Origin: Escherichia coli 042
Lineage (GTDB): Bacteria; Pseudomonadota; Gammaproteobacteria; Enterobacterales; Enterobacteriaceae
Assembly (NCBI RefSeq): GCF_000027125.1
Contig: NC_017626.1
DNA length: 64,000 bases
Reading direction: 5' to 3' (one strand)
Shown: piece after piece, positions 58,601 through 61,600 of the stretch
Layout of the letters: every line of letters begins with the position of its first letter
Numbering within the stretch: position 1 is the stretch's first letter
Program-made: the position numbers

Positions 58601-61600
58601 ACGCCCGCTGGCGCGGCTGGCGAACGAAGGAATGCGCGAGTCAGCGGTACGCAACGCTACGCTGGTGGAAGCAGTGCAGTCGATTGAAGATATTAAACTG
58701 CTGCGCGCCGAACAGCGTTTTCAGAATCAGTGGAACCACACCAACGATGTGGCCTCGTCCATCAGCATGAAGCAACGTTTTCTCACCGGGCTACTGCTCA
58801 CCTGGACCCAGGAAGTGCAATCCATCGTCTACGTGGTGGTGCTGTTGGTGGGCTGCTTTATGGTAATGAACGGTGACATGACCACCGGCGCGCTGGTCGG
58901 GACGACGATCCTGGCTTCGCGCACCATCGCGCCGCTGTCGCAGATATCCGGCGTGCTCTCGCGCTGGCAGCAGGCGAAAGTGGCGCGCAACGGACTTGAT
59001 GAACTGATGAAGCGCCCGGTGGATCAGCCGGAACACGGCAAACTGGTGCATAAAGCGGTGCTACACGGCAATTATCAGTTCAGCAACGCTATCTTTTATT
59101 ACGACGAAGAAGAGAAAATTGCCGATGTGGCGATTGGCAAACTCAACATTCAGGCCGGAGAGAAAATCGCCATTCTTGGGCGCAACGGCGCGGGTAAATC
59201 AACGCTACTGCAAATGCTCGCCGGAATGCGTATCGCACAGCAGGGGCAGGTGCTGCTGGATAACATCAGTATCGGGCAGCTTGATCCGGCGGATCTGCGC
59301 CGCGACATGGGGCTGCTGAGCCAGACCGGGCGACTGTTCTTCGGTTCGCTGCGGGAAAACCTCACCATGGGGATGCCGGAAGCCAGCGATGAAGATATCG
59401 AACGCGCGTTAACGCTAAGTGGCGCGCTGCCCTTTGTGCAGAAGCAGAAAAACGGCCTCAACTACATGATTCAGGAAGGGGGATTTGGCCTCTCTGGTGG
59501 TCAGCGGCAAACGCTGCTGCTGGCGCGGCTACTTATCTCTCAACCCAATATCGTGCTGCTCGATGAACCCAGCGCCTCGCTGGATGAAATGGCAGAAGCG
59601 TATTTAATTGAACAACTAAAACAATGGGTTGGGCATCGCACGCTGGTCATCGCTACTCACCGCACGGCGATGCTGCAACTGGTGGACAGGATCATCGTGA
59701 TGGATCAGGGGCGGATTGTGATGGATGGCGCGAAAGAGGCCATTTTGCGTGAACAGGGAGAACCCACGACGCGACGGGTGGTGTTGCAGGAGAAGAATAA
59801 GGGGTCTGCCGCATGAATGGACAACTGCAATACAACCGTGGCCTGACTGAACCCCGCCTGCCGCGTTCGGTGCTGGCGGTACGCGTTACCGCTGTGATGC
59901 TGCTCTGTTTTCTCGGCTGGGCGTGGTACTTCCAGCTTGATGAAGTCACCACCGGCAGCGGCACGGTAGAACCTTCCGGGCGCGAACAGGTGGTGCAGTC
60001 GCTGGAAGGCGGAATTCTGTATCATCTCGACGTCAAGGTTGGCGATATTGTTGAACAGGGCCAGCCGCTGGCGCAGCTTAATCGCACCAAAACGGAATCC
60101 GACGTTCAGGAAGCGATGTCGCGGTTGTATGCGGCGCTGGCAACCTCGGCGCGGCTGCGGGCGGAAGTGAGCAATAAACCGTTGGTCTTCCCTGACGAAC
60201 TGAATAAATTCCCCGAACTTATCGAGTCGGAAACGGCGTTGTACAACACTCGCCGCGACGGGTTGAACAAAGCCACCACCGGGCTGACGCAGGGGATTAG
60301 CCTGGTCAACCGCGAACTGGCGATGACCCAGCCGCTGGTAAAACAGGGGGCGGCGAGCAGCGTTGAAGTGCTGCGCCTGCAACGCCAGGCCAATGAACTG
60401 GAAAACAAACTCAGCGACGTGCGCACGCAATATTACGTTCAGGCGCGCGAAGAGTTAGCGAAAGCCAATGCGGAAGTGGAAACCCAGCGTTCGGTGATCC
60501 GCGGGCGGGAAGATTCTCTCACCCGGCTCAACTTTACCGCGCCGGTACGTGGCATTGTTCAGGACATTGACGTCACCACGGTTGGCGGCGTCATTGCCCC
60601 CGGTGGTAAACTGATGACCATCGTGCCGCTGGATGAGCAACTGCTGATTGAGGCAAAAATCTCCCCGCGCGATGTGGCGTTTATCCACCCGGGGCAAAAA
60701 TCGCTGGTGAAAATAACTGCCTACGATTACTCCATCTACGGCGGCCTGCCGGGAGAAGTGGCGGTGATATCACCAGACACCGTGCAGGATGAAGTGCGGC
60801 GCGATGTTTATTACTATCGGGTGTACATTCGTACTTTCAGCAACCATCTGGAAAATAAACATAAACAGCAGTTTCCGATATTTCCCGGCATGGTGGCGAC
60901 GGTCGATATCCGCACCGGCAAAAAAAGCGTGCTGGATTATCTGTTGAAACCCTTTAATAAAGCACAGGAGGCGTTGCGCGAACGATGAACATTAGCGATG
61001 TAGCAAAAATTACCGGCCTGACCAGCAAAGCCATTCGCTTCTATGAAGAGAAGGGGCTGGTGACGCCGCCGATGCGCAGCGAAAATGGTTATCGAACCTA
61101 CACGCAGCAGCATCTCAACGAACTGACCTTACTGCGCCAGGCGCGCCAGGTGGGCTTTAACCTGGAAGAGAGCGGCGAACTGGTGAATCTGTTTAACGAC
61201 CCACAGCGTCACAGCGCCGATGTAAAACGGCGCACGCTGGAGAAGGTAGCGGAGATCGAACGGCACATTGAGGAGCTGCAATCCATGCGCGACCAGCTAC
61301 TGGCGCTGGCGAATGCCTGCCCTGGTGATGACAGCGCCGACTGCCCGATTATCGAAAATCTCTCCGGCTGCTGTCATCATCGGGCGGGGTGAAAATCAGT
61401 TAATCCCCGTTTGCACCGAAAGAATATGCTGCAAACTTTCTACCATTATGCGCCCCGATTGAAATAAGCCTTCCTGGATTTCGTTGTTAACATTCACAGC
61501 GTGAACCAGGGAGGCTAATAACACCACTTGCAAGAAGGCAAAAATAAACGCACCGATAATCATAATATGCGTCAGGGGGATTTTCCTTTGCTCCTTCATT

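Follow-up and report, generated by a model that had tools for sequence, protein, structure and literature searches.

The copper-sensor gene cueR of Escherichia coli begins inside the last gene of O-island 28: anatomy of the junction and an apparent deletion scar in K-12-type genomes

How does a core-genome regulator obtain its ribosome-binding site and its transcripts when its start codon is buried in the stop codon of an unrelated gene? The question is raised by a stretch of 64,000 nucleotides from Escherichia coli 042 (NC_017626.1; the whole stretch is called the window below), in which cueR, encoding a Cu(I)-responsive MerR-family regulator, follows directly on the gene for the membrane-fusion protein (MFP) of a type I secretion system (T1SS). 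The cluster to which the MFP gene belongs corresponds to O-island 28 (OI-28) of enterohaemorrhagic E. coli (EHEC) O157:H7, with the gene arrangement tolC28-rtx-hlyB28-hlyD28 between ybaT and cueR, and the MFP gene is its final gene. The original prediction was that the two genes are translationally coupled or at least co-transcribed, unless a promoter inside the MFP gene serves cueR. We find that the ribosome-binding site of cueR is written in MFP codons, and a promoter probably lies there too.

The 3' end of the MFP gene reads ...GCA CAG GAG GCG TTG CGC GAA CGA TGA AC..., and the ATGA at 60985-60988 (+ strand) holds both its stop codon and the start codon of cueR. This had been claimed beforehand from the ending CGC GAA CGA TGA, together with an identical ATGA (59813-59816, + strand) shared by the stop codon of the ATP-binding cassette (ABC) transporter gene and the start codon of the MFP gene. 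Both overlaps agree with the listing of open reading frames (ORFs; 57654..59816 and 59813..60988) and, letter by letter, with the sequence. The proposed gene identities hold as well, being backed by Pfam and NCBIfam profiles and by a match to PDB 1Q05. The ABC permease/ATPase (hlyB28-like; 57654-59816, + strand) matches ABC_membrane and ABC_tran and reaches 835 bits against TIGR03375 (cut-off 693). The HlyD-family MFP (hlyD28/Z0635 type; 59813-60988, + strand; 391 aa; HlyD_3) scores 328 bits against TIGR01843, type_I_hlyD (cut-off 208.65), with an alignment that runs to the last profile position, 422 of 422. CueR (60985-61392, + strand; 135 aa) scores 308.6 bits against NF007590 (cut-off 244) over residues 1-135 of 135. 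The two ORFs are thus real genes on the same strand whose stop and start share ATGA, with zero intergenic DNA between them, so that co-transcription is possible.

As the ORFs were called purely mechanically, we considered whether the overlap might be an illusion of annotation, with cueR really starting, or the MFP gene really ending, at another position. Nothing was found in its favour. The window CueR is identical to the K-12 protein and, over residues 1-135, to the crystallised one, including the metal-binding Cys112/Cys120 loop; its match to the NCBIfam equivalog is end to end, and the MerR helix-turn-helix profile begins at residue 1. No alternative in-frame start occurs in the window until Met30, and the ATG at 60985 is therefore the cueR start codon. 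On the other side of the junction, the MFP ends not only at the last position of its profile but also at the same residue as its distant relatives (below). The chance that the overlap is spurious is accordingly negligible.

Four-base ATGA overlaps are the commonest type of overlap between same-strand bacterial genes, and a third one is found within the same window (61596-61599, minus strand). As a sequence pattern, the junction is therefore ordinary and statistically unremarkable; the unusual part is the identity of the genes that it joins. What the overlap entails for cueR is that its Shine-Dalgarno sequence, AGGAGG at 60966-60971 (+ strand), 13 nt before the ATG, is made of the MFP codons CAG GAG GCG (Gln-Glu-Ala). 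The junction is unchanged in all 14 Escherichia sequences compared. A search for RNA structure in the cueR leader that could hide the Shine-Dalgarno sequence found none, and the leader is predicted to be unstructured (folding z = +1.3).

To place the junction in a wider context, MFP homologues were sought in one genome per GTDB species and the best 80 loci were examined. The gene is followed by cueR in three of these, all from Escherichia (E. coli SCPM-O-B-8794, Escherichia sp. E1V33 and E. whittamii). The other 77 loci, from Enterobacter, Cedecea, Lelliottia, Rahnella, Acinetobacter and others, encode proteins 56-73% identical to the MFP, and none has cueR within 3 kb. All 77 nevertheless end in ...EA[LM]RER* at the identical residue. 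Since these foreign proteins stop at the same residue without cueR, both Escherichia proteins have kept their native termini. The junction is derived and peculiar to Escherichia, and the DNA that formerly followed the MFP stop codon has been lost. The AGGAGG was also considered as an adaptation specific to Escherichia; this was rejected, as it occurs in 6 of 76 foreign homologues through codon choice.

How common is this arrangement within E. coli itself? Among 5426 complete genomes, 5424 carry cueR, and an intact 3' half of the MFP gene is present in 959 of these. In the remaining E. coli genomes that were sampled, the alignment to the window begins only at 60890-60893. A 351-bp probe from K-12, comprising ybaT, the junction and cueR, was matched in 4458 of the 5424 genomes (82%), among them K-12 strains, O111:H8 and ST131. 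As each match was required to cover at least 80% of the probe in a single piece, one deletion junction is common to all 4458. The segment missing from these K-12-type genomes spans 35100-60889 (left end ~35100), or ~25.8 kb, and amounts to OI-28 without its last 95 bp. Those 95 bp (60890-60984, + strand; M360-R391 of the MFP) are retained upstream of cueR with eight substitutions and one 1-bp deletion, and the alignment shows AGGAGG, the spacer and ATGA intact. The remnant of the MFP gene that a comparison with K-12 had been suggested to reveal is therefore present. It carries the leader and Shine-Dalgarno sequence of cueR, and the Prokaryotic Genome Annotation Pipeline (PGAP) calls it as a frameshifted, incomplete gene with a missing N-terminus and a 4-bp overlap with cueR.

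The left end of the missing segment is also informative. In the window, the glsA-ybaT transcription unit ends in an intrinsic terminator (35083-35105, + strand; -16.1 kcal/mol, z = -3.6), a perfect 10-bp stem followed by CTTTGTCTTT. The left breakpoint (~35100) falls in the right arm of this stem; in K-12 the hairpin is gone and no terminator is left there. The usual reading of an O-island would be the reverse of ours, with the K-12 state ancestral, OI-28 inserted in pathogenic lineages and the 95 bp a native cueR leader. Such a history is implied by the phrase 'acquisition of OI-28' in Niu et al. (2025), and it would fit the island being in the minority (959 of 5424 genomes) and enriched in EHEC. 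However, the 95 bp of K-12 code, bar the 1-bp deletion, for the final 32 residues of the MFP, among them the C-terminus that is invariant in the family and that occurs in the 77 homologues unlinked to cueR. Moreover, the left end cuts a terminator hairpin that island strains keep whole, and the full junction is found in genomes of two other Escherichia species (E. whittamii and strain E1V33). In Klebsiella (ortholog table of Kim et al., 2012) and Salmonella (Permina et al., 2006; PMC1526738), cueR lies directly beside copA, without such a leader. Insertion is therefore very improbable. Because the scar encodes the family-invariant end of the MFP, the island-less state is, as judged from the sequences, a deletion of ~25.8 kb and not ancestral. 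We regard the anatomy of the junction and this deletion scenario, taken together, as close to certain.

The cueR gene itself varies. Across the window (60985-61374) and 11 other Escherichia loci, alleles show up to 35 differences in 390 nt, typically 10-23, and they do not sort by the presence or absence of OI-28. The idea of deeply diverged island-plus and island-minus cueR haplotypes was therefore rejected, and recombination between the scar and cueR is implied.

If the leader of K-12 cueR is a piece of a secretion gene, where does its transcription begin? The Cappable-seq list for MG1655 (Ettwiller 2016, Additional file 1; U00096.2 coordinates) contains four + strand transcription start sites (TSSs) upstream of cueR, which is located at 513217..513624 in NC_000913.2 (Kim et al., 2012). 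The strongest, at 513178 (score 100.3), is 39 nt before the ATG; the others are at 513131 (49.2; -86), 513102 (3.7; -115) and 513196 (2.0; -21). In the K-12 locus used for comparison (L001), they correspond, from -115 to -21, to positions 2977, 3006, 3053 and 3071, and all four fall on purines. The U00096.2 mapping agrees to within 1 nt with the position of a published sigma-54 motif, and we place high confidence in it. (That motif, CTGGCACTGGTTTTGCT, is an intragenic site in K-12 ybaT, at L001 2404-2420 and 680 bp upstream of cueR; the ybaT allele of the window has no exact counterpart.) The -39 start falls within the MFP scar and corresponds to the G of CTGTTGAAACC. Upstream of the -86 start, the hexamer TATTAT (L001:2994-2999) stands at -12..-7 relative to that start and straddles the deletion junction, so that this TSS would use a -10 element assembled from the two sides of the deletion. 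Another study placed the cueR TSS at 512925 (-292), inside ybaT (Kim et al., 2012); a transcript from there can reach cueR only because the ybaT terminator is gone. Transcription from upstream fits the earlier prediction of a ybaS-ybaT-ybbI operon (Permina et al., 2006; PMC1526738). In K-12, then, transcription of cueR begins in the scar and at the junction, and possibly also further upstream. Other sources on mapped promoters, Mendoza-Vargas (2009) and SMRT-Cappable-seq, contain nothing on cueR.

It is less clear what this implies for strains that carry the island. The original prediction had offered two alternatives, expression tied to the secretion operon or a promoter inside the MFP coding sequence, and the -39 start in the 95-bp remnant favours the second. 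The homologous position in the window is 60946 (+ strand), and its context is conserved, GATTAT-CTGTT-G in the window against GAATAT-CTGTT-G in K-12. In K-12, GAATAT lies 5 nt upstream of the main TSS; in the window, GATTAT (60935-60940, + strand) lies 5 nt before the homologous +1 and is a candidate -10 element with weak support from a position weight matrix (PWM). The rival view is that in island strains cueR is effectively a sixth gene of the T1SS operon, supplied by read-through from the tolC28 promoter (PhoB/RstA/RpoS) or from more distant upstream promoters, with termination-reinitiation at the MFP stop codon providing its translation; the K-12 promoters would be innovations that followed the deletion.

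Several observations weigh against a start inside the island-type tail, and some of them speak for this rival. Mapped 5' ends inside MFP-derived sequence come from the K-12 scar only (-39), and the K-12 data sets disagree with each other, Kim et al. (2012) reporting -292 only and Ettwiller (2016) -115, -86, -39 and -21. Five positions around the -39 promoter distinguish the two alleles. The island type has TCCGCA where K-12 has TTCGCA, its spacer is longer by one G, and it reads CTGGATTAT instead of CTTGAATAT (CTGG for CTTG). The -35 element of the window is poor (TCCGCA at 20 bp). In the PWM scan, the K-12 combination TTCGCA-17-TTGAAT falls in the top 0.15% of background; the island-type allele lacks these features, scores poorly and does not stand out. 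Improvement of the K-12 promoter, or even its origin, may thus postdate the deletion, and the -86 promoter exists solely at the deletion junction. A scan for consensus promoters also found no + strand match in the last 2 kb before cueR of the island type. The MFP tail shows no extra conservation either, with 7 segregating sites in -120..-21 against 6-11 elsewhere (n = 5 island-bearing sequences); the idea of a dual constraint on it was rejected, as conservation of the last 100 bp does not exceed that of the remaining gene. Finally, operon transcription does extend far, as all five OI-28 genes including hlyD28 fall 3.25-4.85-fold in an rstA mutant (Niu et al., 2025; PMC12758282). Part of this is blunted by the consensus scans being uninformative: they also miss the mapped K-12 promoters, so that their silence means little.

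Operon transcripts may, moreover, extend into cueR. The fall of hlyD28 in the rstA mutant shows that transcription arrives at the MFP gene; as no terminator stands in the way, it should continue into cueR. Over the final 900 bp of the MFP gene, no terminator-like site was found on the + strand. At 49 of 76 non-Escherichia loci, a perfect hairpin, 6 bp or longer, lies within 80 nt of the MFP stop codon (20 of them with a T-rich tail); by the same measure the window has none. The minimum free energy of the 80 nt downstream of the stop codon was dropped as a terminator test, as it did not discriminate. Read-through into cueR in island strains would therefore be unobstructed and is possible, and hlyD28 is known to follow the regulation of the operon by RstA and Ca2+ (PMC12758282). 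The published RstA box, TAATTCAAATTACC, is found at 35115-35128 (+ strand) upstream of tolC28, in the regulatory region of the operon (PMC12758282). RstA activates OI-28, which promotes adherence (Niu et al., 2025; PMC12758282), and OI-28 (ecs0540-ecs0544) is also listed as PhoB-regulated (Yoshida et al., 2010, as cited in PMC3978041). Neither cueR nor OI-28 genes are listed in the supplementary data of the array study of EHEC at low phosphate. Anti-termination by RfaH was considered and rejected, as no exact ops element was found in the island.

Can cueR then depend on the operon? A sensor that is constitutively needed would hang on a conditionally expressed 25-kb operon. In EDL933, the first two genes of the island, Z0608 and Z0609, are 55-fold and 20-fold RpoS-dependent, and Z0634 and Z0635 are absent from the same list, which speaks against strong promoter-proximal transcription simply continuing to the operon end. 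In strain ETEC1738 (L002), 2.7 kb are missing relative to window positions 55195-57911, fusing the adhesin in frame to the ABC transporter; PGAP annotates the product as a single 6735-aa 'SiiEA', and the T1SS has decayed with the MFP-cueR junction intact. The adhesin of the window is itself split into four ORFs, yet cueR is intact in both strains. In IAI39, the MFP gene has been truncated independently: the insertion sequence IS1 lies 144 bp before the cueR ATG and separates the operon from the tail. The DNA upstream of it is rearranged; the tail, which is of the island type, and its ATGA are spared. The rearrangement has brought allB/ybbY beside the IS1-interrupted MFP gene (L090 2288-4894), and an IS4 at the 3' end of cueR leaves the gene annotated with 137 aa instead of 135.

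An obligatory dependence of cueR on the operon is rejected, because cueR is expressed in the 82% of E. coli that lack the island and because IS1 has severed the tail in IAI39. Co-transcription is possible in island strains, as no terminator separates the genes; of the two alternatives, the evidence favours a promoter inside the MFP coding sequence over expression tied to the operon. Translational coupling would be possible and is not needed, given the complete AGGAGG 13 nt before the cueR ATG and the unstructured leader. Nor is it obligatory, since K-12 translates cueR despite the broken upstream frame. With the conserved GATTAT-CTGTT-G context added to these points, we consider it unlikely, if a serious competitor, that cueR is simply a further operon gene in island strains.

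The explanation that we favour combines an internal start with read-through. Escherichia cueR has no intergenic region of its own; its ribosome-binding site (60966-60971) lies, and its proximal promoter or promoters would lie, within the last ~100 bp of the MFP coding sequence. In most E. coli, a single deletion of ~25.8 kb removed the island and halted 95 bp before cueR, leaving a scar that now acts as the cueR 5' region; in K-12, transcription starts mainly at -39 in this scar and also at -86, from what would be the TATTAT of the junction. The same deletion destroyed the ybaT terminator and so opened cueR to read-through from glsA-ybaT. In island strains, basal transcription of cueR would start inside the MFP tail, in the GATTAT-CTGTT-G context, and operon transcripts that reach the MFP end would carry cueR too. 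Translation would proceed mainly from the Shine-Dalgarno sequence of cueR, with termination-reinitiation at UGA/AUG as an optional extra. The anatomy, the distribution, the scar and the K-12 TSSs are shown by the data; for island strains, we infer the activity of the promoter, the extent of read-through and any coupling. Both routes probably operate there, with the internal start as the basal supply. For this picture as a whole (internal start, read-through and scar history), our confidence is somewhat better than even.

A bolder version can be proposed, in which the CueR level of OI-28 strains is partly set by read-through from an operon under PhoB, RstA/Ca2+ and RpoS control, and the K-12 deletion changed the wiring of cueR at a stroke, both creating a -10 at the junction and removing the ybaT terminator, with later substitutions tuning the scar into a promoter. 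We put this forward as a conjecture that is probably wrong, at least in part; if read-through does set CueR, the responsiveness of copper efflux would be wired to host-colonisation signals.

The junction has practical consequences. One is a prediction, that phosphate, calcium and RpoS signals would cross-talk with cueR in pathogenic strains only. The textbook 5' region of cueR in K-12 is a relic of a secretion gene, and therefore the absence of OI-28 from K-12 reflects loss rather than non-acquisition, which corrects the usual telling of the history of the island. Deleting OI-28 or hlyD28 in EHEC risks taking away the ribosome-binding site and proximal promoter of cueR, and the phenotypes of such knock-outs would be confounded by a defect in copper homeostasis; the published whole-island OI-28 mutant was not complemented (PMC12758282). 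The natural deletion shows the margin that has to be left before cueR, at least 95 bp.

The remainder of the locus can be described briefly. The gene order in the window is copA (30077-32581, minus strand), glsA, ybaT (33779-35071), the 26-kb cluster and cueR. The first island gene (35409-36764, + strand; tolC28) encodes the TolC-family outer-membrane component (OEP; TIGR01844, 415 bits). It is followed by the region of a giant BapA/SiiE-like adhesin (36873-57650, + strand; BapA_N, Big_13), and the MFP is thus encoded together with an ABC transporter, a TolC-like outer-membrane protein and adhesin ORFs, as befits a T1SS. The four consecutive adhesin ORFs are 36873-38207, 38293-45819, 45816-51071 and 51201-57650, the last three being in the same frame or frameshifted; pseudogene lesions, sequencing errors or genuinely separate genes are the candidate causes of the split. 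A perfect CueR operator, ACCTTCCAGCAAGGGGAAGGT (ACCTTCC-N7-GGAAGGT), is located at 32629-32649, in the copA-glsA intergenic region. No comparable site occurs within 900 bp upstream of cueR, the only match with 3 mismatches being about 1 kb upstream, and autoregulation by CueR was rejected for want of a nearby box. Beyond cueR, the window has an additional segment relative to K-12 (61396-64000, between cueR and ybbJ). As this segment is also present in SX48, a strain without OI-28, it is independent of the island. It contains minus-strand ORFs of 67 aa and 140 aa, to which the ATGA overlap at 61596-61599 belongs, and a YadA-family adhesin (62104-63858), with 369-bp tandem repeats, 96% identical, at 63188-63925.

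How does this junction compare with what has been described? The island, a T1SS-adhesin operon of the sii(A) type, is that of EHEC, whose published genes are tolC28, rtxA28, rtxB28, hlyB28 and hlyD28 (PMC12758282), and the window shares with it the gene set, the order, the locus and the RstA box. In that paper, cueR does not occur once, the overlap and the K-12 remnant are unmentioned, and the island is treated as acquired (Niu et al., 2025; PMC12758282). The overlap, the scar and the -10 spanning the junction are not noted in any paper that we found; the pseudogene call of PGAP alone marks the scar. In the copA-cueR divergon of Salmonella and Klebsiella, the regulator and its target copA are the same as in Escherichia, and the CueR box at copA is intact in the window. 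There, however, cueR adjoins copA, whereas in Escherichia glsA-ybaT and OI-28 come between them and cueR is left without an upstream region of its own.

The closest formal parallels are found within E. coli. The stop and start codons of trpE-trpD and trpB-trpA overlap, with translational coupling, and like the MFP-cueR pair these are same-strand overlaps of the ATGA/UGAUG type with the downstream Shine-Dalgarno sequence inside the upstream coding sequence. In the trp pairs, however, the partner proteins cooperate and coupling sets their ratio, whereas here a secretion component of an island is joined to an unrelated copper sensor of the core genome, and 82% of genomes have a working downstream gene without its upstream partner. 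The main rpoS promoter is embedded in the preceding gene, nlpD. As would be the case for cueR, the 5' untranslated region and promoter of a regulator thus lie within the preceding ORF, and read-through is possible too; unlike nlpD, the ORF that embeds the cueR leader ends a 26-kb mobile or accessory cluster and in most strains survives only as a 95-bp pseudogene scar. Hybrid promoters generated by insertion sequences or deletions are likewise known at rearrangement junctions. The -86 start of K-12 would resemble these, the halves of its TATTAT coming from both sides of the deletion, and it differs from them in that its activity is deduced from one TSS data set and the sequence. The MFP-cueR junction is thus a new example of a known arrangement, and it leaves the understanding of overlapping genes and of MerR regulators unchanged.

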